A DNA stretch of 64,000 nt, from NCBI GenBank assembly GCA_963674755.2, contig CAXXVS010000003.1:1472001-1536000 (forward strand). Direction: 5' to 3'. The notes beneath the pieces were generated by a model. The model searched no databases and was not told the DNA's origin. It saw only the letters and a list, made by a program, of their open reading frames with translations. The stretch's first letter is position 1. The number at the start of each line of letters is the position of its first letter. Made by a program: the position numbers and the translations under genes. Below, piece by piece: positions 24,120-53,234 of this stretch. Source of the DNA: Desulfobacterales bacterium. GTDB lineage: Bacteria; Desulfobacterota; Desulfobacteria; Desulfobacterales; UBA5852.

Positions 24120-24815
24120 TCACAGATCTGCCAGGCGTCCATGCTCGGCCAGGGAGGCCAACTGGTCCCGGTCCAGAAGGCCGATTTCCCTGCCGTTGAC
24201 GCGGATCAGTCCCTTGGACGACATGCGGTTCAGGATCCGTGACAGGGTCTCGGGAATCGTGCCGATAATGCTGGCCAGCTGGGCTTTGGAGATGTTGAGC
24301 GCCAGGCGTTCCGCGCCCTGCTTCTCGTCGCTGAGATAGAGCAGATAGGACGCCAGACGGGCCGGGACTTCCTTGAGAGAGATGCTTTCGATCTGCACCG
24401 TAAATTCCCGCAGGCGGTTGGACAGGATGGCCAGCATGTTGAGGGCCAGGGTGGGGCGGGCCCGGATCAGGTCCACAAAAGCCCGGCGCGGGAAAAACAG
24501 CAGGCGGCTTTCGGTGATGGCCTGGGCGTTGGCCGGAAAGGAATCGCCGGCAAAGACCGCCACCTGCCCCAGGGGTTCTCCGCTGCCCAGGATGTGCAGG
24601 ATCTGTTCCTTGCCCTCGGGGGACATCTTGAACACCTTTATTTGGCCGCTGAGGATCAGAAAAAAACCGCGGCCCTCCTCGCCGTCGCTGAAGACCAACT
24701 GGTTGCGCTGATAGGTGCGCTCGGAGGCAATCTGCTGGATACGCTCCAGCTCCCCGTCGGGCAATCCCCTGAAAAACAAGACGTTGGCAAGCAATTGGCG
24801 GATATCCGTTTCCAT
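24120..24815 (-). CDS. hcpR: Crp/Fnr-family regulator, HcpR type
   Basis: cNMP-binding fold plus HTH LASIIGTIPETLSR, no Fnr N-terminal Cys cluster; divergent from the hcp cluster; TTGAC-N4-GTCAA boxes nearby. Confidence 0.8.
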   Translation of the reverse strand: METDIRQLLANVLFFRGLPDGELERIQQIASERTYQRNQLVFSDGEEGRGFFLILSGQIKVFKMSPEGKEQILHILGSGEPLGQVAVFAGDSFPANAQAITESRLLFFPRRAFVDLIRARPTLALNMLAILSNRLREFTVQIESISLKEVPARLASYLLYLSDEKQGAERLALNISKAQLASIIGTIPETLSRILNRMSSKGLIRVNGREIGLLDRDQLASLAEHGRLADL

Positions 24816-24888
24816 GGTGCTCCTCGCTGGGGCGGCGTTTGAGGGACCGTGTCGTGCCGATGATGCCCCACGCCTTAGATCAAAAAGA

Positions 24889-24902
24889 TTGACCTAAGTC
24901 AA
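24889..24902. promoter_or_regulatory. HcpR/Crp-Fnr box
   Basis: TTGACCTAAGTCAA between hcpR and the cytochrome operon. Confidence 0.8.
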
Positions 24903-25185
24903 TTTTTGAGGTTGCCCGCTATGGTACCATAAAAAATGAATGCTATTTATCTATTGACAGTCCATCGGTGAGAAAGATACGCATGACGATACAGACAATT
25001 GCCTTCACGCAGATCCAACTCGCCCGTCGCTTTACCGGATCCCGGGGTACTGCACTTCCATAGCGCCTGTTGGCCCTCTTATTGCCGCCGAATGAAATGA
25101 CCGCCTAACGGAACGTTTTCAGAGCCGCAGGACACCCCATAAAATGTTTTGAACGGATTTACCGACACCACGGCAGGCACGGATC

Positions 25186-25716
25186 ATGAAAAAAAAGTAT
25201 ATTATTGCAGGATCCCTCATTGTCCTGGGCGTTCTTATCGCGTTTCCCCTTTTCAGCATGACCTACTACACCATGGTGCGTACCTCCACCCCGCAGTTTT
25301 GCTCGTCCTGCCACGAAATCGGTTTTGCTTACAATACCTGGAGAACCTCCACCCACGTCAACAACGGCCAGGGGTTCGTCGCCGTTTGCATGGACTGCCA
25401 TCTTCCCGCCCCACAAAACACGTTCGACTTTTTTTACGCCAAGACCTTCCACGGTCTCAAAGACGTGGCGGCACATTTCTTCGCGGGCCCGTACAATCAC
25501 GAGGAGAGTCGGGAGAAAGCCTACGCCTCCATCAAAAACGATCAATGCCTGAAATGTCACCAAAACCTCATCTATATGCCCTATAAACGCGGGGCCATGC
25601 TGGCCCATCGGTCGGTCCTCTATCCCCGGCCGGGGTATGAGCTGAGCTGTTTTGATTGCCACCGGAACCTGGTGCATAACGAGAAGCCTTATTACAACTA
25701 TAAAACGTGTGGTTAG
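25186..25716 (+). CDS. NapC/NirT/NrfH-family tetraheme quinol dehydrogenase
   Basis: N-terminal TM; CSSCH, CMDCH, CLKCH, CFDCH. Confidence 0.9.
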   Translation: MKKKYIIAGSLIVLGVLIAFPLFSMTYYTMVRTSTPQFCSSCHEIGFAYNTWRTSTHVNNGQGFVAVCMDCHLPAPQNTFDFFYAKTFHGLKDVAAHFFAGPYNHEESREKAYASIKNDQCLKCHQNLIYMPYKRGAMLAHRSVLYPRPGYELSCFDCHRNLVHNEKPYYNYKTCG

Positions 25717-25808
25717 CGGCTGTTCTCAAAAGCATTTTGGGCACACGCGTCCGATCAGGCGCTTTAACTGCGGTGGGCTTTTATCCAGCATACAAGGAGG
25801 GGCGAGCA

Positions 25809-27215
25809 GTGAAAAAGGAACGCATAGCAATGATGTGGGTGGCGATGCTTCTGATTTTGGGGAGTTGGCACCCCCAAGTCGCCGCTGAGGAACCGCAAGC
25901 CACGAATTTCCCCAAAGCCAAAGCGTTTCGTATCGAGCGCGGCATGTCCCCGGCGGCCCAAGCCTGTATCGAATGTCACAAGGCGGAAAGCCCCGCGATT
26001 TTCGTGGATTGGTCCATGAGTCTTCACGCCAAGGCCAATATCACCTGTCTGGACTGCCATCAGGCCGAAGCGACCGACGCGGATGTAAGCCAGCAGCACT
26101 TCAAGCAGTATGAACGGACCGACACGCCCTGGGGCACAGCCGATTATCGGGCGCCGGTGTCCGCGGTGGTGACCCCCAAGGATTGCTCTCGCTGTCATCC
26201 GGATGAAGTCAAGCAGTACGGCCAAAGCAAGCATGCGCACACCCTGGAGATCATTTGGAAAATAGACCCCTGGCTGAATGCCGGCCTGAACAGCGATGTC
26301 GAGCGGGCAACCGGCTGCTTTCATTGCCATGGCACGGTATTGAAGACAAAAGACGGCCAGTTGGACCCCTTGACATGGCCCAACGTGGGGGTGGGAAGGC
26401 GCAACATGGACGGCAGCCTCGGCAGTTGCAGCAGCTGTCATACCCGGCACCGGTTCTCCGTCATGGACGCCCGCAAACCGGAAGCCTGCGGCCAGTGCCA
26501 CCTCGGCCCCGACCATCCCCAAATCGAGATTTTCAAGGAATCCAAACATGGCGACATTTATGACGCCTTCGGCCAGGATTATAACTGGGACGCCGCACCG
26601 GGGACCTGGACGCCGGGCGTGGACTACCGCGGTCCCACCTGCGCGTCGTGCCACATGTCAGGGTCCGGCAAGGTGTTGACCTCCCACAACGTGGGCGAAC
26701 GCCTTTCCTGGGAACTCCAGGCGCCGCTCACGATTCGTCCGTCGGAGTTCAAACCCTTTCCATCGCCCACCAACTGGGAAGTGGAACGCAACAAAATGAA
26801 AGACGTCTGCCTTCAGTGCCATGGACCTGAGTGGGTGAACGACCACTTTATCAAGCTGGACAAGGTGGTCATGGACTATAATGACGTTTACTTCAAACCG
26901 ATGAAGAAGAAGCTGGACGAACTCTATGCCAAGAAACTGATGGATCCCCAAAAGTTTTTTACGGAGCCGCTCTTTTTCGAGTTCTATGAGTTGTGGCACC
27001 ATGAAGGCCGACGGGCCCGCATGGGGACGGCCATGATGGCCCCGGACTATACCTGGTGGCATGGTTTTTATGAATGCAAGAAGCGCTATGTCCACTTCAT
27101 GAAGGAAGCCGACGACTTGCTGAAAAATAACCAAAAGGCCTATGAGGCCCCGGTGTTTCCGGGATCCGGCGGCAACACCCAGAAACCGCCCGAGATTTTC
27201 GGCAAAGCCGAATAG
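25809..27215 (+). CDS. Periplasmic octaheme cytochrome c, hydroxylamine oxidoreductase (epsilon-Hao)-like
   Basis: Signal peptide; 8 CxxCH; CSSCHTRHRFS, CGQCHLGPDHPQ, PTCASCHM, WHHEGRRARMG..PDYTWWHG; GTG start after AAGGAGG. Confidence 0.85.
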   Translation: MKKERIAMMWVAMLLILGSWHPQVAAEEPQATNFPKAKAFRIERGMSPAAQACIECHKAESPAIFVDWSMSLHAKANITCLDCHQAEATDADVSQQHFKQYERTDTPWGTADYRAPVSAVVTPKDCSRCHPDEVKQYGQSKHAHTLEIIWKIDPWLNAGLNSDVERATGCFHCHGTVLKTKDGQLDPLTWPNVGVGRRNMDGSLGSCSSCHTRHRFSVMDARKPEACGQCHLGPDHPQIEIFKESKHGDIYDAFGQDYNWDAAPGTWTPGVDYRGPTCASCHMSGSGKVLTSHNVGERLSWELQAPLTIRPSEFKPFPSPTNWEVERNKMKDVCLQCHGPEWVNDHFIKLDKVVMDYNDVYFKPMKKKLDELYAKKLMDPQKFFTEPLFFEFYELWHHEGRRARMGTAMMAPDYTWWHGFYECKKRYVHFMKEADDLLKNNQKAYEAPVFPGSGGNTQKPPEIFGKAE

Positions 27216-27517
27216 AACCGGGGCCGTATCCGGTTTGACAAGGGTAACCATAAACGCGTGGGGGGGCAGGGGCGTAACGCTTCGGCCCCCCATGCGTTGG
27301 TTCGTGTGGCGTTTCCCTCTGGCGATCACTGGGCGGAGACGCGATGCGTATTCATCCGCCTGCTGGCCAGCGCGAGAAACCGGCACCCTATACTTCCCCG
27401 TACCCCGCCCGTACCCCTCCTGATGCGACCGGGTAGGAGCGCTTGCCCCCCCCAGCGCCCTGATTACCCCGTCGCTACCCAAGCCTTTCCCGTTTTTTTG
27501 AGGATCTGAAGGGAAAG

Positions 27518-27531
27518 TTGACTTACGTCAA
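27518..27531. promoter_or_regulatory. HcpR box upstream of hcp
   Basis: TTGACTTACGTCAA, about 95 nt before the hcp ATG. Confidence 0.82.
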
Positions 27532-27626
27532 TGCGCATTTACGGTCATGGGGATAGATAGGCGGACAGGATGAACGAAAAGGACGACAGTCAAAGCGGTT
27601 AACCCATATCCTCAAGGAGGCATTCC

Positions 27627-29255
27627 ATGTTTTGTTTTCAATGCGAACAGACGGCCAAAGGCGAAGGCTGCACCAAACTCGGCGTGTGCGGCAAACAGCC
27701 GGATACGGCGGCCTTGCAGGATCTTTTGATTTACGCGGTAAAAGGGCTTTCGATGGTGGCCCGGGCCGGCCTCAAGGTTGGCGTACGGGCCGGCGCCGTG
27801 GACCAATTTGTCTGCGAGGCGATTTTCTCCACCCTGACCAATGTGGATTTCGATCCGGACCGCTTCGTGGCCCTGATCAACGAATGTGTGGCCCTGCGGA
27901 GCCGGTTGGCGACCAAGGTCAAAGCGGCCGGCGGGCAGGTGGACGAGGGCCAGGCGGCGGTCACCTTCACGCCGGAAGCCACCCGCGAAGGCATGGTGGC
28001 CCAAGGCGGGACGGTGGGCGTTCCCACGGGGCCGGAGATCAACGTGGATATCCGTTCCCTGCGGGAACTTTTGGTCTACGGCACCAAAGGTCTGGCCGCC
28101 TACGCGGATCATGCCCGGATCCTGGGACAGGAAGACCCGGCCATCTATGATTTCATTTACGAGGCCATGGCCGCCACCCTGGACGAGAGCCTCGGGGTGG
28201 ACGAGCTGGTGGGCCTGGCCCTCAAGTGCGGGGAGGTGAACCTGCGGGCCATGGAACTCCTGGATGCCGGCAACACCGGCACTTACGGCCACCCGGTGCC
28301 CACCAAGGTGCCCCTGGGGGCCAAACAGGGCAAGGCCATCCTCGTTTCGGGGCACGATCTCAAGGATCTCGAGGAGATCCTCAAACAGACTGCAGGCAAG
28401 GGCATCAACGTCTATACCCACGGCGAGATGCTGCCCTGCCACGGGTATCCGGGGTTGAAAAAATATTCCCATTTCTACGGGCACTACGGCACCGCCTGGC
28501 AGAACCAGGCCAAGGAATTCGCCGCTTTCCCGGGCGCCATTCTGATGACCACCAATTGCATCCAGCGGCCGGCGGAAAGTTATAAGGATAACATTTTCAC
28601 CACCGGCCTGGTGGGCTGGCCCGGAGTGTCGCATATCGCCGACAAGAACTTTGCCCCGGTGATCGCGAAAGCCCTGGACATGCCGGGTTTCAGCGCGGAT
28701 GCGCCCGGTAAGGAAGTCCTGGTGGGCTTCGGCCACAATGCCGTCCTGGGGGTGGCCGGACAAGTTGTCGAGGCCGTCAAGAACAAGGCCATCCGGCACT
28801 TTTTCCTGGTGGGGGGCTGCGACGGGGCCAAGACCGGCCGCAACTACTACACCGAACTGGTGGAGAAGATCCCTGGGGACTGCGTCGTGCTGACCCTGGC
28901 CTGCGGCAAGTTCCGTTTCTTCGACAAGGATCTGGGGGACATCGGCGGCATTCCACGCCTGCTCGATATCGGCCAGTGCAACGATGCCCATTCGGCGATT
29001 CAGATTGCGGTGGCCCTGGCCGGGGCGTTTGACTGCGGCGTGAACGATTTGCCCCTGTCCATGATTTTGTCCTGGTACGAGCAGAAAGCCTGTGTGATTC
29101 TGCTCTCCCTGTTGCATCTGGGGATCCGGGACATCCGCCTGGGACCCAGCCTGCCGGCCTTCATTTCGCCCAACGTGCTGGATGTACTGGTGAAAAACTT
29201 CAACATCATGCCCATCGGCTCCCCGGACGAGGATCTGAAGGCCATCCTGGGGTAG
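27627..29255 (+). CDS. hcp: Hybrid cluster protein (hydroxylamine/NO reductase)
   Basis: MFCFQCEQT..GCTKLGVCGK, SGHDL, THGEMLP, TTNC, GGCDG, LACGKF, GQCNDA, WYEQKA. Confidence 0.98.
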   Translation: MFCFQCEQTAKGEGCTKLGVCGKQPDTAALQDLLIYAVKGLSMVARAGLKVGVRAGAVDQFVCEAIFSTLTNVDFDPDRFVALINECVALRSRLATKVKAAGGQVDEGQAAVTFTPEATREGMVAQGGTVGVPTGPEINVDIRSLRELLVYGTKGLAAYADHARILGQEDPAIYDFIYEAMAATLDESLGVDELVGLALKCGEVNLRAMELLDAGNTGTYGHPVPTKVPLGAKQGKAILVSGHDLKDLEEILKQTAGKGINVYTHGEMLPCHGYPGLKKYSHFYGHYGTAWQNQAKEFAAFPGAILMTTNCIQRPAESYKDNIFTTGLVGWPGVSHIADKNFAPVIAKALDMPGFSADAPGKEVLVGFGHNAVLGVAGQVVEAVKNKAIRHFFLVGGCDGAKTGRNYYTELVEKIPGDCVVLTLACGKFRFFDKDLGDIGGIPRLLDIGQCNDAHSAIQIAVALAGAFDCGVNDLPLSMILSWYEQKACVILLSLLHLGIRDIRLGPSLPAFISPNVLDVLVKNFNIMPIGSPDEDLKAILG

Positions 29256-29359
29256 CGGGATCGGACTGGCTATCCGTTTGATCGGCATTATCCTAGACGG
29301 GCGGTCGGCCAACGTTTCCGGCCGCCCGCCAGGCGCACGTTCAACGGGAGGATACAGCG

Positions 29360-30085
29360 ATGAAATGCCCGGGACAGGATATGCAATTCTGGAAAGCAGG
29401 GGATATTTTCGAAGTGGAATGCCCCCATTGCGGCCGTACCGTGGAGTTTTTCAAAGACGACACGGCCCGGCGCTGCGGCCACTGCGGCCATCGTTTTGCC
29501 AATCCCAAAATGGATTTCGGCTGTGCCGCCTATTGCCCCTTTGCCGAACAATGCATCGGCGATCTGCCGCCCGAGGTGGCCGCCCAGCAGGAAAATCTGC
29601 TGAAGGACAAGGTGGCCGTGGCTGTCAAACAATACTATGGCCGGGATTTCCGGCGCATTGGCCATACTTCCCGCGTAGCCCGTTATGCCGAACAGCTGGC
29701 CCGGGCGGAAAACGCCAACCTGGCGGTGGTGTTGGCGGCGGCCTTTCTACTGGATGTGGATCAGGCCGGACCGTCCCAGACGCCCGGCGATAAGGACGGG
29801 ACCGGCCGCGGCAATGGGGGGACGGCGGTGGCACGGGCCATTTTGGACCGGGTCCATGCCCGCCAGGACATGACGGACGCGGTTTGTGATGTGATCCAAC
29901 AGGTCCAGGGCGGCAACGGCGATGCCTCCCGCGAGGTGGGGGTTGTGCGCGATGCCATGCTCCTGGCCGGGTTGGAAGAACAGAAAAGAGACGGGAATCT
30001 GCAAGCGGACAGCCTGTCCAGGATGTCGACGGCCTGTCATACCGCCGCCTGTCAGCAGCAAGCCGAAACTCTCCTGAATGCGTGA
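29360..30085 (+). CDS. Zn/Fe-ribbon (CPG..CxxC..CxxC..CxxxC..C) domain fused to a degenerate HD-like domain
   Basis: MKCPGQD..CPHCG..VEFFKDD..CGHCG..FGCAAYCPFAEQC; RRIGH..AAFLLDVD where HD is expected. Confidence 0.7.
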   Translation: MKCPGQDMQFWKAGDIFEVECPHCGRTVEFFKDDTARRCGHCGHRFANPKMDFGCAAYCPFAEQCIGDLPPEVAAQQENLLKDKVAVAVKQYYGRDFRRIGHTSRVARYAEQLARAENANLAVVLAAAFLLDVDQAGPSQTPGDKDGTGRGNGGTAVARAILDRVHARQDMTDAVCDVIQQVQGGNGDASREVGVVRDAMLLAGLEEQKRDGNLQADSLSRMSTACHTAACQQQAETLLNA

Positions 30086-30111
30086 AAACGGAACTAATGA
30101 GGTAAGCATCA

Positions 30112-30870
30112 ATGAAAGTCGTGCGAAAGATCATCGAAATCGACGAAGAACTCTGCGACGGCTGCGGCCAGTGCGTCACCGGGTGTGCGGAAGGGGCGCT
30201 CGCCATTATCGACCACAAGGCGCGTGTCATTTCGGACAATCTGTGTGATGGCCTGGGCGCCTGCATCGGGGAGTGTCCCACCGGCGCCCTGCAGATCGTG
30301 GAGCGCGAAGCCGAGGAGTTCGACGAGAACGCGGTCGAGAATCACCTGGCGCAGCAGCCCCGCGAACAAGCGGTCAGCACACCGGCCATGGGGGGCGGGT
30401 GCCCGTCGGCCGGCATCCAAATGTTCACCCCGCAGGCTCCGGATGCCGGGCCGCGCCACAAGGCGGCCAAGGACGATGAAATGCCTTCCGCCCTGTCCCA
30501 CTGGCCGATCAAACTGCGCCTGGTACCGCCCCATGCGCCGTTTTTAAAGGAGGCGGATTTGCTGGTATTGGCCGATTGCGGCGCCATTGCTTTTCCTACG
30601 CTGCATCGCGACTTGCTGCAGGGCCGCGTGGTGCTGGCGGGCTGTCCTAAATTTGATGATGTGGCCCTGTACGAAGAGCGGCTCACCCAGATTTTCAGGC
30701 AGGCGCACATCCGGACCGTTACCGTGGTCCGCATGGAGGTCCCCTGTTGCGCCGGGCTGCAAGCCCTGGTGCTGAAATGCCTCCGGTCGTCCGGTGCAGA
30801 CATCCCGGTGGAAGAAATCGTGATTTCCGCCACGGGCCGGCGGGTGGACCCCTCCCGCCGTTTATCCTGA
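30112..30870 (+). CDS. 2[4Fe-4S] ferredoxin-domain protein (hcp-associated FrdX type)
   Basis: CDGCGQCVTGC, CDGLGACIGECP, WPIKL, ADC, GCPKFD, MEVPCC. Confidence 0.85.
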   Translation: MKVVRKIIEIDEELCDGCGQCVTGCAEGALAIIDHKARVISDNLCDGLGACIGECPTGALQIVEREAEEFDENAVENHLAQQPREQAVSTPAMGGGCPSAGIQMFTPQAPDAGPRHKAAKDDEMPSALSHWPIKLRLVPPHAPFLKEADLLVLADCGAIAFPTLHRDLLQGRVVLAGCPKFDDVALYEERLTQIFRQAHIRTVTVVRMEVPCCAGLQALVLKCLRSSGADIPVEEIVISATGRRVDPSRRLS

Positions 30871-31617: not shown

Positions 31618-31689
31618 TACCCTGATCGATTTCAACCGTGGTTTTTTGTTAAATTATTTCACCTTAATTTTTTTAAAGGAGGATGACGA

Positions 31690-32265
31690 GTGTCAACGTT
31701 AAAAGGAAGCCAGACCGAGAAGAACTTGCTCGCCTCGTTTGCCGGGGAATCCCAGGCGCGTAATCGCTATACCTATTTCGCCAAACAGGCCCAAAAAGAC
31801 GGTTACGTTCAGATTGCGCGCATTTTTGAAGAAACGGCCAATCAGGAAAAGGAGCATGCCAAACGGCTGTTCAAGTTTCTCGAAGGGGGCGAAGTCGAGG
31901 TGGTGGCCGCCTTCCCGGCCGGTGTTATCGGTGGAACCTACGACAATTTGATGGCCTCCGCCGATGGTGAGCGTTACGAACACACGGAAATGTATCCGGG
32001 GTTTGCCAAAGTGGCTCGCGAAGAGGGCTTCGATGCGATCGGCATGGTCATGGAAATGATTGCGGTGGCCGAGAAACAGCACGAAAAACGCTATGTCGAA
32101 TTGGCCGGCAACCTGAAGGCCGACCGGGTCTTCAAGCGGGAACAGACCGCCAAGTGGCGTTGTTTGAACTGCGGTTACGTAACCGAGGGCGTCCAGGCGC
32201 CTGAGATGTGCCCGGCCTGCGCCCACCCCCAGGCCTATTTCGAACTGCTGGGCGAGAACTGGTAG
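31690..32265 (+). CDS. rbr: Rubrerythrin
   Basis: [21 protein letters not shown] diiron ligands; CLNCGY..CPACAHP; GTG start with AGGAGG RBS. Confidence 0.97.
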
Positions 32266-32360
32266 CCATCACCCACCGCCCCCTGCATCCCTGCCCGGCC
32301 GGGGGGATGCGGGCGGCCCCAACGGGGTCGTCGAAGATCCCAAGCCATAAGGAGAGAAAA

Positions 32361-32735
32361 ATGGCCGAACGCTATGAAATTTACAAGTGCGAACTTTGTG
32401 GCAACATCGTCGAAGTCCTGCATGGCGGTGCCGGTGAGCTGGTTTGCTGCGGACAGCCCATGAAGTTGTTTACCGAAAATACGGTCGATGCCGCCAAAGA
32501 AAAGCACGTGCCGGTGGTTGAAAAAGTCGACGGTGGCTTTAAGGTCAAGGTGGGCTCGGTGGCGCACCCCATGGAAGAGAAACATTACATTGAATTTATC
32601 GAAATCATCGCCGACGGCAAGATTTACCGGCAGTATCTCAATCCGGGCGACGCCCCCGAGGCGGTGTTCAATATTGCGGCCAGCAACGTGACGGCCAGGG
32701 AGTATTGCAATCTGCACGGGCTGTGGAAGGCCTAA
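32361..32735 (+). CDS. dfx: Desulfoferrodoxin (2Fe superoxide reductase)
   Basis: [35 protein letters not shown]. Confidence 0.97.
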
Positions 32736-32862
32736 GCGCTCCGTCCGCAGCTACGTCTGCGTAAACGCCGGCGGGGTCGGCCCGATCAGGCGGGGCGCAC
32801 TCCGGCATGGTCGGGTGGGTGCCGGATGCCCAGCCGACGACCCCGCAGCGGGGAGGTGGCTC

Positions 32863-33018
32863 ATGACCATATGGAAATGTTCCAACTGCGGCTATACCGT
32901 CAAGCAGGAAAAACCCCCGGAACCGTGTCCGTCCTGCGGCGAGAAGTGCGAGTTTCTCAACGCCACGTGCTATACGCCCGACTGCCGCGACCAGGAGATC
33001 GACAAGCGGATCCGTTAA
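32863..33018 (+). CDS. Small rubredoxin-like protein with extra C-terminal Cys pair (not separately in ORF track)
   Basis: MTIWKCSNCGY..PCPSCGEKCEFLNATCYTPDC; GGAGG RBS. Confidence 0.8.
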   Translation: MTIWKCSNCGYTVKQEKPPEPCPSCGEKCEFLNATCYTPDCRDQEIDKRIR

Positions 33019-33034
33019 GAAGGAGAATGATACC

Positions 33035-33469
33035 ATGGGCAGGGCATTGATCGTCTACACCACCCGTACGCAGGAAACCCGGCAGATCGCGGATCTGATC
33101 GCGGAGGGGATTCGTTTTTCCGGCCATGAGGCTGTTGTCCAGGATGTGAAGGACATCAAAAAGGAAGGGGACCTGGCAGGTTACGACGCCTATCTCTTCG
33201 GCTCGCCGACCTATCACGGGGAGATGATCCAGCCCATGAAGACCTTTCTTTTCCTGGCGGAAAAGGCGGATCTGGCCGACAAGGTGGGGGGGGCCTTCGG
33301 CGCTCACGGATGGAGCACGGAAGCCCAGGAACGGATCTACCAGACCATGAAAACAGTTTTCAAGATGGATATGGTCAGCGGCCCGCTCCTTTTGAAATCC
33401 GCCAGTCTCGGGGGCGGCCTCCAGATGGCCCAGGACTACGGGCGCGACATTGCCAAGAAGATGACCTGA
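33035..33469 (+). CDS. Flavodoxin-domain protein
   Basis: LIVYTTRTQET, FGSPTYHG, AFGAHGWSTEA. Confidence 0.88.
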   Translation: MGRALIVYTTRTQETRQIADLIAEGIRFSGHEAVVQDVKDIKKEGDLAGYDAYLFGSPTYHGEMIQPMKTFLFLAEKADLADKVGGAFGAHGWSTEAQERIYQTMKTVFKMDMVSGPLLLKSASLGGGLQMAQDYGRDIAKKMT

Positions 33470-33536
33470 ACTTCTATTCCTGCACGGGCGGTGACGTCTT
33501 CCCGACCGGCAGACACCACGACCACAAGGAGGCATC

Positions 33537-33740
33537 ATGACAACACCTCAACATTGTCCAGGCTACGAAAACTTTCGCAATCTGAAATCCTTTACCTGCA
33601 AATGCTCCGAATGCGGCGCCGAGATTGAGATTTTTTCAGATGAATTTGACCGCAAGCACCAATGCAAAGGGTGTGGCAAACCGATCGATTTTACCCAGTG
33701 TGAACTGACCGGCGAGGCCCAAAGCCTGTCTCCCCGCTGA
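33537..33740 (+). CDS. Small Zn/Fe-ribbon protein
   Basis: HCPG..CSECG..EIFSDE..CKGCG; AAGGAGG RBS. Confidence 0.78.
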   Translation: MTTPQHCPGYENFRNLKSFTCKCSECGAEIEIFSDEFDRKHQCKGCGKPIDFTQCELTGEAQSLSPR

Positions 33741-33875
33741 CGCTGATCTATAGCCCGCCGTGAAGGCACTTTTTCCCGGCGGAGGATGCCCATGCTATCG
33801 CCCAACCGGCGGGTCGGAATACGGCCTGCATCCGGTACAGGGGATGTGTCACCCTGATTTACGGAGGAATTGTCA

Positions 33876-35186
33876 ATGGATGTGGTCACCCTATCGCGTT
33901 TGCAATTTTATGCAACATCGGCCTTTCACTTCCTTTTTGTCCCCCTGACATTAGGGCTGAGCTGGATCGTCGCCTATATGGAAACCAAGTACGTCCGCAC
34001 CGGCGATGAGACCTACCTGACCATGACCAAGTTCTGGGGAAAGATCTTTCTCATCAATTTTGCCGTAGGGGTTGTCACCGGCATTACCCTGGAATTTCAG
34101 TTCGGCACCAACTGGTCAGGCTATTCGGCCTATGTGGGCGATATTTTCGGCTCCCTGCTGGCCATCGAGGCCACGGCCGCCTTTTTCCTGGAATCCACTT
34201 TCATCGGGGTCTGGATCTTTGGCTGGCAGAAGCTGGCGCCCAAAACCCACGCCATCGTCGCCTGGTTGGTGGCCATCGGTTCCAATGTGTCGGCGGTCTG
34301 GATCCTGATCGCCAACTCCTGGATGCAGCACCCGGTGGGCTACACCATGCGCAACGGCCGGGCCGAACTGACCGACTTTCTGGCGGTGGTCACCCAGCCC
34401 TTCGCGGTCACGCAAATCGTTCACGTGTTGAGCAGCGCCCTCCTTCTGGCCGGCTTTCTCATCATGGGAATCAGTGCCTATCACCTTCTGAAAAAGCAGA
34501 ACATTGACTTTTTCACCCGCTCTTTCCGGATCGGCGTGGTGTGCGGCCTGGTGGGGTCCCTGGCGGTCGCCATTTTAGGCGATTTCCATGCCAAGGAAGT
34601 TACCGAAAAGCAGCCGGTCAAACTGGCCGCCATGGAATCGCTGTGGAAAACCACCCGGCAGGCACCGATTTATCTATTTGCGATTCCGGATGAGGAGAAC
34701 GGCCGCAATGCGGTGGAATTCCTGTCCATCCCGGGCGCGCTGAGTTTTCTGGGCTATGGCAACTTCAACGCCGAGGTCAAGGGGCTGAATGACTTCCCCC
34801 GGGATGAACGGCCGCCGGTTCTGCCCGTTTTTCTGGCGTTTCGGGGCATGGTGGCGCTGGGAACTTACTTTATTTTGATCACGATCGTGGCCTTTATCCG
34901 GCGCAACAAATTATTGGAAAGCCCGCTGCTGCTGAAGATCCTGCTGTTCTCGATCCCCCTGCCTTACCTGGCCACCCAATTGGGATGGGTGGTGACCGAA
35001 CTGGGGCGCCAGCCCTGGATCGTCTGGGGGATGCTGCGCACGAGTGCCGCGGGCTCACCGATCGCCGTCAGCCAGGTGGTCACAACCCTCGTGGGTTTCA
35101 GCCTGGTTTACACGTTGCTGGGCGTTGCCGGCTATTATCTGATTATTCAGCACGCCAAACGGGGGCCGGCGGCCACGGCGGCCTAG
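33876..35186 (+). CDS. cydA: Cytochrome bd oxidase subunit I (short Q-loop)
   Basis: FHFLFVP, EFQFGTNW, ANSWMQHP, QPVKLAAME, ELGRQPW. Confidence 0.96.
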   Translation: MDVVTLSRLQFYATSAFHFLFVPLTLGLSWIVAYMETKYVRTGDETYLTMTKFWGKIFLINFAVGVVTGITLEFQFGTNWSGYSAYVGDIFGSLLAIEATAAFFLESTFIGVWIFGWQKLAPKTHAIVAWLVAIGSNVSAVWILIANSWMQHPVGYTMRNGRAELTDFLAVVTQPFAVTQIVHVLSSALLLAGFLIMGISAYHLLKKQNIDFFTRSFRIGVVCGLVGSLAVAILGDFHAKEVTEKQPVKLAAMESLWKTTRQAPIYLFAIPDEENGRNAVEFLSIPGALSFLGYGNFNAEVKGLNDFPRDERPPVLPVFLAFRGMVALGTYFILITIVAFIRRNKLLESPLLLKILLFSIPLPYLATQLGWVVTELGRQPWIVWGMLRTSAAGSPIAVSQVVTTLVGFSLVYTLLGVAGYYLIIQHAKRGPAATAA

Positions 35187-35250
35187 ACAGGCCAACGGCA
35201 TCGGTGTAGAGCTGCAAGTCATCTGAACTACTTTCGTTTGAGAGGGCGCA

Positions 35251-36279
35251 ATGGATCTACAGGCTATTTGGTTTTTTCTCTGGGGATTATTATGGGCGGT
35301 TTTTTTCATGACCGACGGATTCGATTTTGGTGTCGGCACCCTATACCCTTTTCTGGGCAAGACGGATGAAGAAAAGCATACCATGATCGCGGCCATCGGG
35401 CCCTTGTGGGATGGCAACGAGGTCTGGCTGATATCGGCCGGCGGCGTCACCTTTGCCGCCTTTCCCCTGGTCTATGCAGTCATGTTCTCCACACTCTATT
35501 CCGCCTTGATGCTGATTCTCTTCACCCTGATCCTGCGGGGGGTATCCTTCGAGTTTCGCAACCAGGTGGAAGATCCGCGTTGGAAGCGCATCTGGGATAC
35601 CTGCATTTTTATCGGTAGTGCCGGGCCGGCACTGCTTTTCGGGGTGGCTTTCGCCAATATTTTCCAAGGCATTCCCTTTGACGGCGCAGGCGTCTACCAT
35701 GGTTCCTTGTTTACCCTTTTAAATCCCTACGGCTTGTTGGGGGGCGTTCTTTTCCTGGTACTTTTTCTCCAGCACGGCGCATTGTGGCTGGGGATCAGAA
35801 CCGGCGGAGCCCTCCAGGTACGCGCAACACGACTGGCCGCCCTGCTGTGGCCCTTGGTGGTCGTGGTGGCGGTGGTCTTTCTGGTGGCCAGTTGGTTCAA
35901 AACCAATCTTTACGTCAACTACCTGGCCCATCCGGCCCTGTTTATCGTCATCGCCGTGACCGTATCGGCCCTCTTGGCCGTGAGGGTTTTCATCGCCCGC
36001 CAAGCCTGGTTTACGGCCTGGTTCGCTTCGGCCCTGACCATCGTCGGCGCCACCTTTTTCGGTGTCATCGGGTTGTTCCCGAATCTCTTTCCTTCCAGCC
36101 TGGACGCGGTCTTCAATCTGACGGCCCGCAATGCCAGCTCCAGCCCGTTGACCCTGAAGATCATGCTGGTGGTGGCCATTATCTTCGTTCCGATCGTCCT
36201 GGTTTATCAGGCCTGGTCTTACAATCTGTTCAAACACAGGGTATTGCCCGCCGACCTGGCACATGAGGAAACCTATTGA
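35251..36279 (+). CDS. cydB: Cytochrome bd oxidase subunit II
   Basis: TDGFDFG, IGPLWDGNEVWL, FAAFP, LRGVSFEFR. Confidence 0.96.
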   Translation: MDLQAIWFFLWGLLWAVFFMTDGFDFGVGTLYPFLGKTDEEKHTMIAAIGPLWDGNEVWLISAGGVTFAAFPLVYAVMFSTLYSALMLILFTLILRGVSFEFRNQVEDPRWKRIWDTCIFIGSAGPALLFGVAFANIFQGIPFDGAGVYHGSLFTLLNPYGLLGGVLFLVLFLQHGALWLGIRTGGALQVRATRLAALLWPLVVVVAVVFLVASWFKTNLYVNYLAHPALFIVIAVTVSALLAVRVFIARQAWFTAWFASALTIVGATFFGVIGLFPNLFPSSLDAVFNLTARNASSSPLTLKIMLVVAIIFVPIVLVYQAWSYNLFKHRVLPADLAHEETY

Positions 36280-36317
36280 GCAGGGAAGGAACGCGGCTTT
36301 TCCAAAGGAGATGTGCC

Positions 36318-36674
36318 ATGCAAACGGTGAAAGTGCTTGTCGTGATGCTGGTGTTAATGGGGTTTGTCGGACTGGCGGGGGCTTACACCATCCAGACGGA
36401 AAACAAGGGGGAGGCCCGGATTACCCTGGACGGCGGCCGGAGCGGTCCGGTGCCCTTTCCCCACCGGGTCCACCAGACGGCCCTGGACGACTGCAAGGTT
36501 TGTCACGACCTCTTCCCGCAGCAGGCCGGCGCTATCGATACCCTGAAAGCCAGCGGCACGTTGAAAGCCAAGCAAATCATGAACAAAAGCTGTATCAAGT
36601 GCCATAAGGAATTGAAAAAAGAGGGCAAGAAAACGGGACCGACCACTTGCAAAACCTGCCACGCCAAAAAATGA
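36318..36674 (+). CDS. Periplasmic triheme cytochrome c7/c3-like protein
   Basis: Signal peptide; PFPHRVH; CKVCH, CIKCH, GPTTCKTCH. Confidence 0.88.
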   Translation: MQTVKVLVVMLVLMGFVGLAGAYTIQTENKGEARITLDGGRSGPVPFPHRVHQTALDDCKVCHDLFPQQAGAIDTLKASGTLKAKQIMNKSCIKCHKELKKEGKKTGPTTCKTCHAKK

Positions 36675-36712
36675 GGGTTTAGGGCCGGCGGATAGACAAA
36701 GGAGCATTGCGC

Positions 36713-37669
36713 ATGTTGGTTGTCGGATTACAGGGGAGCCCGCGACGCAAGGGCAACAGCCGCTATCTGCTGGAGAATTTCCTGCAGGCCGCGGCTTCGT
36801 TCGGCGCCCAGACGCGCATGATCGAGGTGGACCGCTGTGATATTCGCCCCTGTAAGGAATACACCGTATGCGAGAAGAAGGGCTACTGCCCCATCGAAGA
36901 TGACATGCTGCGGGAAGTCTACGGTCTGATTCGCCGGGCCGATCTGGTGGTGGCGGCCACGCCGGTGTTTTTTTATAATATGACGGCCCAGCTCAAGGCG
37001 CTTATCGACCGTTGCCAAACCTTCTGGGCGCGCAAGTATCGCCTGCGCTGGCGCGATCCCCGTCGCAAAATCAAGAAAGGGTATTTGCTTTCGGTGGCGG
37101 CCACCCGGGGCAATACGCTGTTTGACGCCATCCACTTGACCATGCAGTATTTTTATGATGCCATCGATGCCGAATATGCCGGCCATTTGACCTATCGCGG
37201 CATCGAAGGCCCCAAGGATATGGCCCACCACACCACGGTCCTCGACGATATTCAGCGCGCCGTGGCCGGCCTCATGGGGCCCCTGGCGGAGCGCAAGCGA
37301 CTGCTGATCCTGGGCCCCCGCGGCACCTGTGCCACGCAGTTGACGGCGGCCCTGGTGCGGGCCAGGGCCGCCGAGCGTTTCGACGTGCGCGTGGCCGGCC
37401 TGGAACCGGGTGCGGGGGTTGACGGCGACGCTGTACGGGTCATGGCGGTGCGCGGTTGGGACATCGAATATGAACACCCCCTTTCCGTCGATACCGCCCT
37501 CGACGGCTGGCGGCCCGACCTGACCCTGGCTTTGGGCGCCGATATGCCGGTATCCGGCAGGGGCGAGGTCATCCAGTGGGAGTTGCCCGCCGGGCGGCCG
37601 GAGGGTGCCGACCATCTGGGGGCCTTATGTGATCTGCTCGATGAACGAATTGCCGCCTTGATCCATTGA
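36713..37669 (+). CDS. Iron-sulfur flavoprotein/FMN reductase domain fused to a degenerate ArsC/LMW-PTP-like domain
   Basis: GSPRRKGNS, CKEYTVCEKKGYC, ATPVFFY..LKALIDR; C-terminal VAGLEPG..AVRVMA..GWDI. Confidence 0.75.
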   Translation: MLVVGLQGSPRRKGNSRYLLENFLQAAASFGAQTRMIEVDRCDIRPCKEYTVCEKKGYCPIEDDMLREVYGLIRRADLVVAATPVFFYNMTAQLKALIDRCQTFWARKYRLRWRDPRRKIKKGYLLSVAATRGNTLFDAIHLTMQYFYDAIDAEYAGHLTYRGIEGPKDMAHHTTVLDDIQRAVAGLMGPLAERKRLLILGPRGTCATQLTAALVRARAAERFDVRVAGLEPGAGVDGDAVRVMAVRGWDIEYEHPLSVDTALDGWRPDLTLALGADMPVSGRGEVIQWELPAGRPEGADHLGALCDLLDERIAALIH

Positions 37670-37735
37670 TCAAAGATCGGTATAACCTCGGAGACAAGTG
37701 TAACGATATCTTGAAGGCAAAGGAGGAAGCGTTCC

Positions 37736-37897
37736 ATGGACAAGTATGTGTGCACGATTTGCGGTTATGTCTACGACCCGGCCCAGGGTGATCCCGACAA
37801 CGATGTGGCTCCCGGTACCGCCTGGGAGGATGTGCCCGAAGACTGGGTCTGCCCGATTTGCGGGGCCGGCAAGGACGATTTCGAAAAAGAAGAGTAG
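37736..37897 (+). CDS. rub: Rubredoxin (53 aa; below ORF-track cutoff)
   Basis: [52 protein letters not shown]. Confidence 0.97.
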
Positions 37898-37928
37898 TCA
37901 CCGTCTATCCGCACCAGCGAAGCTTGTT

Positions 37929-37975
37929 TCAATGCCCTTTTCAACCGCCGCAGGATTGGAAAGGGCATTGATTTT
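37929..37975 (+). terminator. Hairpin after rubredoxin
   Basis: TCAATGCCCTTTTCAA..TTGGAAAGGGCATTGA followed by TTTT. Confidence 0.55.
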
Positions 37976-38217
37976 GCTGCGCGGCGTCTTATCTTTTCAC
38001 TCTGGTTCGGGCAGGCGGTGGCTCACGCCGCAGCGTTGCCCAGCGATCCCCGAAGCGTCGTTGCCATTACCATGAACACCGGTAGCCAACCCGCCAACCG
38101 TAACCGGCGGCCTTGGCGGATGGCCTTCAACGTCCCAATATCCTCTTCCGCCGACAAATGCCCATTGGCATTAGGGGCGGGGAGCCAATAGCAACCACCA
38201 CTTTTTGAGGGAGTAAC

Positions 38218-39402
38218 ATGCGACCCATCGAAATTGCGGAAGGAATCTACGACGTCGGCGTGAAGGACTGGAACATCAGGGATTTTCACGGCTACAGCAC
38301 CCATCAGGGATCGACCTACAACGCCTTTCTGGTGATGGATGAAAAAATCGCCCTGATCGACGCGGTCAAAAAGGATTTTGCGGACCAGCTGCTGGATAAC
38401 ATTGCTCAGATCGTAGACCCCCGGAAGATCGATCTGGTGGTCAGCAACCATACCGAGATGGACCATTCCGGCGCCCTGCCGCGGGTCATGCACCGCATCG
38501 GCGAAGCCAAGCCCCTTTACTGTTCCCAAATGGGCGCCAAGAACCTCAAACAGCATTTCTTTCCCGCCTGGAACTACCAGCCGGTCGCAAACGGCGACGA
38601 GCTCAGCCTGGGGCGCCGCACCCTGACCTTCTTGGAAACGCGCATGCTGCATTGGCCGGACAGCATGTTTACCTATCTCAAGGAAGACCAGATCCTGTTT
38701 TCCAGCGACGCCTTCGGACAGCACTATGCCGGTCCCGAAAAATTTGACGACGAAATCGGCGACCGGATCATGCCCCATGCCAAAAAGTATTATGCCAACA
38801 TTCTCCTGCTCTATGCGGCCAAAACCCTCAAGCTGCTCGAAAAAGTGCAGGCGATGGGGCTTGCCTTCAAAATGATCTGCCCCGACCATGGCATCCTCTG
38901 GCGCAAGGACATCGACAAGATCCTGGGCGCCTACCAACGCTGGTCCAAGCAGGAGACCAAAAACAAGGCCCTGGTGGTCTATGACACCATGTGGCACAGC
39001 ACCCAGCTCATGGCCGAAGCCATCACCGCCGGGCTGGCGGAAGCCGGCGTCTACGCGGTTCCCATGGATCTGCGTCGCACCGACCGCAGCGACGTGATGA
39101 CCGAAGTGCTCGATGCCCGGGCCGTACTCGTGGGGTCGCCCACCCTCAACAACCAGATCTTTCCCACGGTCAGCGACTTTCTGACCTATATGAAGGGCCT
39201 CAAGCCGAAGAACCGCATCGGGGCGGCCTTCGGTTCCTACGGCTGGAGCGGGGAAGCCGTGCGGCAGATCACCGGCGAACTTGATGCCATGAAGTTCGAC
39301 CTGGTCGAACCGGGTCTGCGCATTCAGTACGTACCGGACAAGGAAGGCCTGGCCGCCTGCGAAGACTTCGGTCGCAAGGTGGCCGCTGCCATGCAGGCCT
39401 GA
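38218..39402 (+). CDS. Flavodiiron protein (rubredoxin:oxygen/NO oxidoreductase, FprA/Roo)
   Basis: NHTEMDHSG, LHWPDSM, SSDAFGQH, PDHG, flavodoxin domain AFGSYGWSGEA. Confidence 0.95.
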   Translation: MRPIEIAEGIYDVGVKDWNIRDFHGYSTHQGSTYNAFLVMDEKIALIDAVKKDFADQLLDNIAQIVDPRKIDLVVSNHTEMDHSGALPRVMHRIGEAKPLYCSQMGAKNLKQHFFPAWNYQPVANGDELSLGRRTLTFLETRMLHWPDSMFTYLKEDQILFSSDAFGQHYAGPEKFDDEIGDRIMPHAKKYYANILLLYAAKTLKLLEKVQAMGLAFKMICPDHGILWRKDIDKILGAYQRWSKQETKNKALVVYDTMWHSTQLMAEAITAGLAEAGVYAVPMDLRRTDRSDVMTEVLDARAVLVGSPTLNNQIFPTVSDFLTYMKGLKPKNRIGAAFGSYGWSGEAVRQITGELDAMKFDLVEPGLRIQYVPDKEGLAACEDFGRKVAAAMQA

Positions 39403-52574: not shown

Positions 52575-53234
52575 ATGCTGAAGTTGGGAGAAAAGGGTAC
52601 TATTCTGCAGCGTGACAAGGAAACCTATGCCATTGCACCGCATATTCCCTGCGGTGTCATAACGCCGGCGCAGTTGCGCATCATTGCCGACGTGGCTGAA
52701 AAATACCATTGCCAGGCCTTGAAATTGACCAGCGCGGCCCGCATCGCCTTGGTGGGGCTTCGCGAGGAGGACGTGGACGCCGTGTGGGCCGAACTGGGGA
52801 TGTCGCCCGGTCACGCGGTGGGGCTTTGCGTGCGCAGTATCAAGGCCTGCCCCGGGATCCAGTTCTGCCGGCTGGCCCTGCAGGACAGCCTGGCCATGGG
52901 GATGAAGCTGGACGAAAAGTTCCACGGCTATCAACTGCCGGGCAAACTGAAAATGGGGGTCAGCGGGTGCACGAATACGTGTGCTGAAAACTGCATCAAA
53001 GACATATCCCTGCTGGGCAAGAAGAAGGGCTGGACGGTCATGGCCGGCGGCAACGGTGCCCGCAAACCCCGGCTGGCCGAAGTGGTGGCCGAGGATCTGG
53101 ATGATCAACAGGCCTTGAAGGTCATCGAAAAAATGGTGGACTACTACGCCCAAAACGGCCAGAAGAACGAACGCCTGGGGGCCATGATCGACCGCATCGG
53201 ACTGGAAACCCTGTGCACGGCCGTGGCGTGCTGA
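52575..53234 (+). CDS. Low-molecular-weight assimilatory-type siroheme sulfite/nitrite reductase (alSir-like)
   Basis: 219 aa; ACPGIQFC and GVSGCTNTCAE siroheme-[4Fe-4S] ligand motifs. Confidence 0.8.
   Translation: MLKLGEKGTILQRDKETYAIAPHIPCGVITPAQLRIIADVAEKYHCQALKLTSAARIALVGLREEDVDAVWAELGMSPGHAVGLCVRSIKACPGIQFCRLALQDSLAMGMKLDEKFHGYQLPGKLKMGVSGCTNTCAENCIKDISLLGKKKGWTVMAGGNGARKPRLAEVVAEDLDDQQALKVIEKMVDYYAQNGQKNERLGAMIDRIGLETLCTAVAC

Follow-up and report, generated by a model that had tools for sequence, protein, structure and literature searches.

The DNA considered here, 64,000 nucleotides of a Desulfobacterales bacterium (GCA_963674755.2, contig CAXXVS010000003.1, positions 1,472,001 to 1,536,000; hereafter the window, or C3:1472001-1536000 of the source genome G000, other G and L labels denoting related genomes and loci), carries adjacent genes for a NapC-type membrane tetraheme cytochrome (napC) and an octaheme cytochrome from the hydroxylamine oxidoreductase (HAO) family (hao), preceded by the regulatory gene hcpR and followed by hcp, which encodes the hybrid cluster protein (Hcp). 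Sequence comparisons suggest that the napC-hao pair probably encodes a quinol-fed periplasmic nitrite reductase that stands in for NrfHA, serves mainly in detoxification, and works in parallel with Hcp. A broader claim is put forward more tentatively, as it strikes us as somewhat more doubtful than probable: that the pair would give sulfate reducers another, so far unrecognised nitrite reductase that forms ammonia, fully able to take the place of NrfHA, which is swapped as a cassette and is commoner than NrfHA in its order, with nrfA-based surveys missing much.

The octaheme combines eight CxxCH motifs with the HAO fold, which places it in a very common family (7023 of 8000 scored candidates) whose named members are, among the matches listed, mostly Desulfobacterales and other Desulfobacterota. 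Its best solved relatives by both sequence and fold are Ignicoccus IhOCC (4qo5; E 8e-43, TM 0.61) and Kuenenia HAOr (6h5l; E 1e-22, TM 0.55), about 21-24% identical when aligned by fold, and then Nitrosomonas europaea HAO; the structure model has a mean pLDDT of 74.9 and is low around hemes 5-7. Trp416 and Trp417, Met409, which we take to be a heme ligand, and the Asp235-His236 pair are the same in all 120 proteins aligned, namely that of the window plus 119 of the 120 matches listed. Aligned with Ruegeria HaoA, the cross-linking tyrosine of oxidative HAOs falls on Trp416, or on Trp417 when no gap is introduced. In the supplementary alignment of PMC8940962, the N. europaea tyrosine corresponds to the second Trp of the PDYxWWHG segment of this clade and its histidine to Met409, and the Campylobacterota (epsilon-Hao) rows carry the same Trp and Met. 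Sequence searches of the PDB, tried for the same site, did not reach the tyrosine region of N. europaea HAO and were replaced by these two alignments. Both alignments agree that the tyrosine is not retained, and this Trp supports the reductive Hao that an earlier reading of the letters alone (the sequence-only reading) had proposed. The cross-linking tyrosine within the WTY motif of N. europaea, which marks oxidative HAOs, is thus absent, and the residues typical of epsilon-Hao (Trp for Tyr, Met for the His ligand) are present. Neither a CxxCK (NrfA-type) catalytic heme, whose absence had already been remarked upon, nor a PF02335 match was found in the octaheme, which sets it apart from NrfA and ONR. 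Tyr-less epsilon-Hao proteins are described as reducing nitrite and hydroxylamine, and assayed Tyr-less HAOs as hardly oxidising hydroxylamine, while Kuenenia HAOr, a Tyr-less anammox relative, stops at nitric oxide (NO; PMC8042395). Most such Hao proteins are considered reductive (PMC12758564), and the epsilon-Hao of Campylobacterota form a distinct lineage (PMC9213671).

The partner protein has one N-terminal hydrophobic helix, four CxxCH motifs and a PF03264 match, the features of the NapC/NirT family. It scores below the cut-offs of both the NrfH and the NapC equivalogs (NrfH TIGR03153, 76.5 against a cut-off of 134.2), and Ile45 replaces the methionine of the NrfH heme-1 motif CxxCHxM (PMC8840924) in 71 of 73 tetrahemes. 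Judged by its motifs and profile scores, the tetraheme is a NapC/NirT-family protein and not an NrfH.

Eighty related loci were surveyed, of which 67 have 1300 bp of flank or more and 37 have full 7-kb flanks. The conserved unit is the two-gene napC-hao pair and not the whole Hcp module, because napC lies directly upstream of hao in all 67 loci with a flank of that length, but hcp occurs within 7 kb in 9 of the 37 full-flank loci (frdX in 4, hcpR in 2) and a perfect HcpR box precedes napC in 3 of 69 loci. The genes around the pair nevertheless indicate a link to nitrogen oxides. Of the neighbours queried, hcp is the commonest, near 9/37 loci as against 0.7% of windows drawn at random (n = 5000) from the source genome, and any of 12 chosen nitrogen-oxide or stress genes is near 12/37 loci as against 1.6% of such windows; the background comes from this single genome, the 12 query genes were our own choice, and the sulfur-reductase queries covered the tetrathionate-reductase family, whose genes are near 4 of the 37. 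The pair also lies beside norR/norB on a Desulfosarcina ovata plasmid, is immediately followed by a box-led napA operon in G598, comes right behind nrfHA in G119 and is near norB/qNor at L069, qNor being adjacent in only 1 of the 37 loci.

Fused nine-heme forms (L123-L127, L155-L157, L176-L184) were also encountered, in which an N-terminal monoheme and a membrane region are joined to the Hao domain, without napC. Six of the nine fusion-only genomes also have nrfA, three of the nine carry the fusion beside hcp, an open reading frame (orf) and frdX, and some genomes bear the fusion and napC-hao in tandem.

A role like that of NrfHA is backed by the reciprocal distribution of hao and nrfA, scored as close hao homologues (E at most 1e-150 in the phylum sample) and PF02335, respectively. 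Among 400 genomes of the phylum, hao occurs in 41 and PF02335 in 124, and a single genome has both, against 12.7 expected; in this genome hao follows directly after nrfH-nrfA. The family f47 (n = 151) gives 37, 91 and 3 against 22.3 expected, and the order to which the source genome belongs (n = 201) gives 105, 33 and 6 against 17.2 expected. All six overlap genomes of the order have only the fused nine-heme form without napC; with the nine fusion-only genomes, all of which were checked, set aside, none of the 96 genomes with the NapC-type gene has nrfA, against 15.8 expected, and the pair is commoner in the order than nrfA (96 versus 33 of 201 genomes). Within genera, the overlap is 3 against 6.4-6.7 expected in f47 (8 genera) and 0 against 3.4-5.3 in the order (8 genera), figures for which some genus sizes were assumed and which cover the genera showing both genes. 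A control family, TIGR04315 (tetrathionate reductase), is found in 26 of the 33 nrfA genomes, with 21.8 expected, and thus does not avoid nrfA. Cultured carriers of the pair include Desulfatibacillum alkenivorans DSM 16219, Desulfobacter curvatus DSM 3379 and Pseudodesulfovibrio portus. D. alaskensis G20, described as nitrite-sensitive and without nrfHA (PMC5701242), is not among the named rows of the 120 matches listed out of 1190.

Exchange of one unit for the other can be seen in the genus g311, of whose three genomes one has hao only (G484) and two have nrfA only (G501, G455). In G484 (L142), napC-hao sits between the same flanks as nrfH-nrfA of the other two, with 70-86% DNA identity on both sides; the flanks comprise box-led cupin and siroheme-domain genes upstream, and a tRNA-synthetase-like gene and pyruvate kinase downstream. 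In the genus g372 the slot is shared on the upstream side. The sequence-only reading had proposed a possible NrfA-independent route from nitrite to ammonia through NapC, Hao and Hcp: the reciprocal distribution and the same-slot swap argue for the nitrite-reducing role, and the part not supported in general is Hcp as a fixed member of the module, since it is near in 9/37 loci.

Several observations weigh against this reading or narrow it. The division into NapC-type and fused forms was made after the six overlaps had been seen, and the napC partner was checked in the loci that were fetched rather than in all 96. Related genomes are not independent, so the significance of the co-occurrence counts is overstated. 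No shared flank was found in 11 of the 13 genera compared for a swap (five loci being on short contigs), leaving one two-sided and one one-sided case. The pair is not required, as 72 of the 201 genomes of the order, and 8 of 16 napA genomes, have neither unit. napA was found in only 6 of the 96 carriers (four candidates scored per genome; nar not surveyed), a low share that speaks against respiration and therefore favours detoxification. The further octahemes of the source genome (two of the tetrathionate-reductase family, one IhOCC-like) could do the same job. NO, hydroxylamine and sulfite are further substrates of NrfA (PMC8840924), and the exclusion of nrfA therefore does not fix the substrate. 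Finally, a role with sulfur substrates has been hypothesised for some (clade I) Desulfobacterota HAOs (PMC9213671).

Regulation at the locus points to nitrosative stress. As first noticed from the letters alone, a perfect TTGAC-N4-GTCAA box precedes each unit; boxes with at most one mismatch number 6 in the window against 1.24 +/- 1.05 in shuffled sequence (0 of 100 shuffles reach 6), and 13 perfect boxes exist genome-wide. The recognition helix of HcpR has Pro-Glu at both specificity positions, and Ser or Pro at the specificity position goes with TTGAC-N4-GTCAA sites (PMC1274295); by this rule the helix is of the TTGAC-box type. Box 1 lies 74 bp from the start of hcpR and 284 bp from that of napC. 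Its centre falls at -41.5 relative to the promoter of a candidate extended -10 element facing napC, an activating position found in this lineage only. Box 1 itself is kept in L037 and in G581, which belongs to the same genus as the source genome, and the 22-nt spacing, the TG and the TAnnnT are common to all three, with a diverging spacer. Box 2 is kept in L037, G581 and G661, and a TA at the 22-nt spacing is present in four genomes. The HcpR control claimed in the sequence-only reading is thus supported for both units in this lineage by promoter geometry and helix type, but not as a general feature of a NapC-Hao-Hcp module, given how seldom hcp and a perfect box accompany napC elsewhere. HcpR binding and induction by nitrosative stress at both units are predicted from box, spacing and helix. 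Three other candidates were rejected: a family-wide HcpR site before napC (an FNR-type box with at most one mismatch in only 6 of 70), a family-wide sigma-54 site (pattern in 1 of 70) and a sigma-70-like promoter at 25116-25145, which is not kept in L037. The possible second promoter, TTGACA-18-TAYGYA, sits downstream of the box-1 promoter.

In the same genus, G581 (L172) and G661 (L173) keep the boxes and the hcp-orf-frdX layout, the G661 contig ending inside napC. Their hao is only 62-63% identical to that of the source genome and belongs to another subclade, whereas hcp is 88-90% identical, and because of this disparity the napC-hao cassette seems to have been exchanged within a fixed HcpR-regulated slot. 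The outgroup branch of the hao tree is very long, so neither root nor donor can be read from it.

The pair may then be pictured as follows. The membrane tetraheme would draw electrons from menaquinol and hand them to the octaheme, which supposes both quinol oxidation and binding between the two proteins. As heme 4 of the octaheme lacks the Tyr cross-link, it would act reductively on nitrite, its presumed substrate, and probably on NO and hydroxylamine as well, with ammonia as a possible product. The main use would be to shield sulfate respiration from nitrite, and in the source genome the pair could also clear nitrite made by NarGHI. Placed in the HcpR slot, it would be switched on by nitrosative stress along with hcp-orf-frdX. 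Hcp, described as a high-affinity NO reductase (PMC5701242), would clear NO in the cytoplasm in parallel rather than as an obligatory second step.

Of the competing explanations, the one that survives best, although we regard it as unlikely, joins the three genes into a single pathway, a relay of the reverse-HURM type (reverse hydroxylamine:ubiquinone reductase module) in which hydroxylamine released by Hao would pass into the cytoplasm, where Hcp would turn it into ammonium using electrons from FrdX. It draws strength from hcp being the most frequent queried neighbour, from the HcpR boxes on both units here and in G581, and from earlier literature, in which the same route was put forward for Nautilia together with transcript data (PMC3701875) and raised for this clade in mats (PMC8940962). 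Against it, hcp is missing from the 7-kb flanks of 28 of the 37 full-flank loci (hcp being counted here as a neighbour, not genome-wide), the exchange of the cassette for nrfHA does not involve hcp, and Hcp is described as an NO reductase of high affinity (PMC5701242).

Slightly less likely still is a partial reductase, which would convert nitrite to NO like HAOr or merely scavenge NO and hydroxylamine, leaving qNor, flavodiiron proteins or Hcp to finish to nitrous oxide. The NO-making HAOr (6h5l) is the second-best solved relative (PMC8042395), norB/qNor genes are neighbours on the Desulfosarcina plasmid, at L069 and in an island of the source genome, and HcpR regulons respond to NO (PMC1274295, PMC5701242); yet HAOr has His where the octaheme, like epsilon-Hao, has Met409, qNor is adjacent at one full-flank locus, and a swap with a six-electron reductase would fit full reduction better. 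We consider improbable, by a further small step, that the substrate is a sulfur species (sulfite, thiosulfate or tetrathionate) or that the pair serves as a general electron sink, with the exclusion of nrfA arising from NrfA side activity, habitat or heme cost. Such a role would agree with the abundance of the family in sulfate reducers without napA, with the hypothesis for clade I Desulfobacterota HAOs (PMC9213671) and with the tetrathionate-reductase neighbours, but nitrogen oxides are indicated by the neighbours as a whole (with sulfur queries limited as stated above) and by the regulator box, the pair swaps with nrfHA in the same slot, and the tetrathionate-reductase control does not avoid nrfA. 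An oxidative hydroxylamine dehydrogenase cross-linked through Tyr414 or Tyr421 is very hard to credit: relatives bear that label in databases and both tyrosines are invariant in 120 of 120 proteins, but the cross-link column is Trp in both registers and epsilon-Hao proteins share the same PDY tyrosine and are nonetheless reductive (PMC8940962, PMC8042395).

A quinol-fed nitrite reductase in place of NrfHA can be compared with several known systems. The epsilon-Hao/reverse-HURM proteins of Nautilia profundicola, Caminibacter and Campylobacter (Campbell 2009; Hanson 2013) are alike in having eight CxxCH motifs, Trp instead of the Tyr, Met instead of the His, the segments WHHxGRR and PDYxxWHG and a NapC-type donor, and they too rarely occur alongside NrfAH, the two being reported together in one genome only (Hanson 2013, PMC3701875). 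They differ in that the present proteins form a separate Desulfobacterota clade, have HcpR boxes and reside in sulfate reducers mostly without napA; moreover, the corresponding Nautilia locus tags are far apart (0559, 1280; PMC3701875), whereas napC and hao are adjacent here. NrfH-NrfA likewise pairs a gene for a membrane tetraheme with a downstream gene for a periplasmic multiheme protein, occupies the same slot in g311 and belongs to the HcpR regulon of some delta-proteobacteria (PMC1274295), but the octaheme has eight hemes, no CxxCK and no PF02335 match, and the tetraheme lacks the CxxCHxM methionine. IhOCC and HAOr (Kuenenia Kustc0458) share the fold and the want of a tyrosine at the aligned site; IhOCC has Val in place of His236, and HAOr retains His as the ligand, works with a diheme partner and produces NO (PMC8042395). 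Oxidative HAOs (N. europaea; Ruegeria pomeroyi HaoA) share the fold, the heme motifs and the Asp-His pair after heme 6, but here the cross-link Tyr is missing, no haoB is adjacent and the His ligand is replaced by Met. The octaheme pair would thus work like NrfHA and resembles epsilon-Hao in the residues compared, and it is distinct from both NrfA and the oxidative HAOs.

In the HcpR regulon of delta-proteobacteria (Rodionov 2005, PMC1274295), whose core is hcp-frdX, the TTGAC-N4-GTCAA boxes occur as well, together with hcp, frdX and a divergently oriented hcpR; the main text of that paper, a count that leaves out Table S1, has 0 occurrences of "hydroxylamine oxidoreductase". For Nautilia, a Hao/NapC/Hcp route has been put forward (PMC2628731, PMC3701875), and it has been considered for Dissulfuribacter and Thermosulfurimonas (PMC5276818), Deferribacter (PMC6896113) and this clade in microbial mats (PMC8940962). 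Reductive HAO-family proteins are reported as commonest in Desulfobacterota, with their physiological role left open (PMC9213671). The clade and the Hao/Hcp route are therefore already in print; what is new here is the comparative evidence, namely the exclusion from nrfA and the same-slot swap. The 2011 comparative genomics of sulfate-reducer cytochromes by Pereira may already list the pair. A search of the open-licence literature turned up neither a test of this clade nor a description of nrfA exclusion or swap in sulfate reducers; subscription papers and supplements may hold one.

The source genome (97%-complete) has dsrA and narGHJI over their cut-offs and a NarK-like transporter below its own. 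nrfA was found neither with the PF02335 profile nor by tblastn with an NrfA, a check suggested in the sequence-only reading, and nirS, nirK and napA were not found in this genome. It hence holds the reverse-HURM gene set (nitrate reductase, Hao, NapC-type cytochrome and Hcp, with no nrfA, nirS or nirK found), with narGHJI instead of Nap. The narGHJI genes lie in a nitrate island (Table 1) whose second Crp/Fnr gene stands behind a perfect box. The second hao copy there (C3:1849837-1851575) is 62% identical and frameshifted near 1850270, as a pseudogene or through an assembly error. Six PF03063 matches were obtained, three of Hcp size and three longer, the latter probably carbon monoxide dehydrogenases. 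Among the additional octahemes mentioned above, one of the tetrathionate-reductase family (C3:1217623-1220184, L120), which has an N-terminal c3-type heme domain, shows an in-frame TGA where its paralog at C1:346271 has Cys; one in-frame TGA is also present in many homologues of the order, and the pattern fits selenocysteine rather than a broken gene.

Every part named in the sequence-only reading, that is, hcpR, the NapC-type tetraheme, the octaheme Hao-family cytochrome, hcp and both perfect boxes, was recovered in its place by ORF, motif and profile checks (Table 1).

Table 1. Features of the napC-hao locus (window coordinates) and of the nitrate island (C3 coordinates)
Feature	Coordinates	Strand	Basis
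hcpR, Crp/Fnr-family regulator	24120-24815	-	PF00027 + PF13545
HcpR box 1, perfect palindrome TTGAC-N4-GTCAA, facing napC; may also autoregulate hcpR	24889-24902		motif scan
Candidate extended -10 element, TG-n-TAnnnT	24922-24930	+	hexamer 22 nt past box 1
Possible second, regulator-independent promoter, TTGACA-18 nt-TAYGYA; weak	24954-24983	+	read by eye; kept in three genomes
napC-like membrane tetraheme cytochrome, putative quinol dehydrogenase	25186-25716	+	4 CxxCH; PF03264, E 8e-33, 114 bits
Octaheme Hao-family cytochrome, GTG start, 468 aa, signal-peptide-like N-terminus	25809-27215	+	8 CxxCH; PF13447, E 6e-29
GC-rich hairpin 3' of hao, possible transcript end; weak	27242-27302	+	folding
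HcpR box 2, perfect palindrome, ahead of hcp; TA at 22-nt spacing	27518-27531		motif scan
hcp, hybrid cluster protein	27627-29255	+	TIGR01703 758 bits (cut-off 360.8); NF003658 over cut-off
241-aa protein, weak zinc-ribbon and HD-like matches	29360-30085	+	all Pfam matches below cut-off
frdX-like 4Fe-4S protein, usual hcp partner	30112-30870	+	Fer4 domains; name frdX assigned in this analysis
Nitrate island: qNor, hemerythrin, narGHJI, NarK-like transporter, second Crp/Fnr gene, HPP, flavodiiron protein, second hcp, second napC-hao	C3:1824203-1851852		L117, L118

hao and hcp are probably separate transcription units, because a gap of 411 bp divides them and hcp has its own box. The hairpin after hao lies in a region with a z of -1.56, where 7 of 100 shuffles fold equally well, and is absent from the list of the terminator scan. 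The 241-aa ORF travels with hcp-frdX, being found beside hcp in relatives. The assembly at the locus is backed by the DNA runs X2, X3 and X6, one X3 contig covering 24000-28298; in the RNA run X1, 7% of the words are present, as low-depth contigs. Elsewhere in the window, an oxygen-defence cluster lies directly downstream (31690-39402; rubrerythrin, desulfoferrodoxin, flavodoxin, cydAB, a c3-type cytochrome and a flavodiiron protein), and a one-mismatch HcpR-type box (31683-31696) overlaps the start of its rubrerythrin gene at 31690, as a possible repression site. A 219-aa stand-alone siroheme-domain protein resembling the C-terminal part of NirB is encoded at 52575-53234, and a similar gene lies upstream of the g311 swap slot.

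The exclusion from nrfA and the swap together yield a specific prediction for cultured strains. If the proposed role is correct, the absence of nrfA would not equal nitrite sensitivity in sulfate reducers, and surveys based on nrfA would overlook much nitrite resistance and ammonification capacity in these bacteria. The database label hydroxylamine dehydrogenase would be wrong in direction for these genes, and the finding would bear on the treatment of sulfide production with nitrate or nitrite, as well as on gene-based estimates of ammonification.

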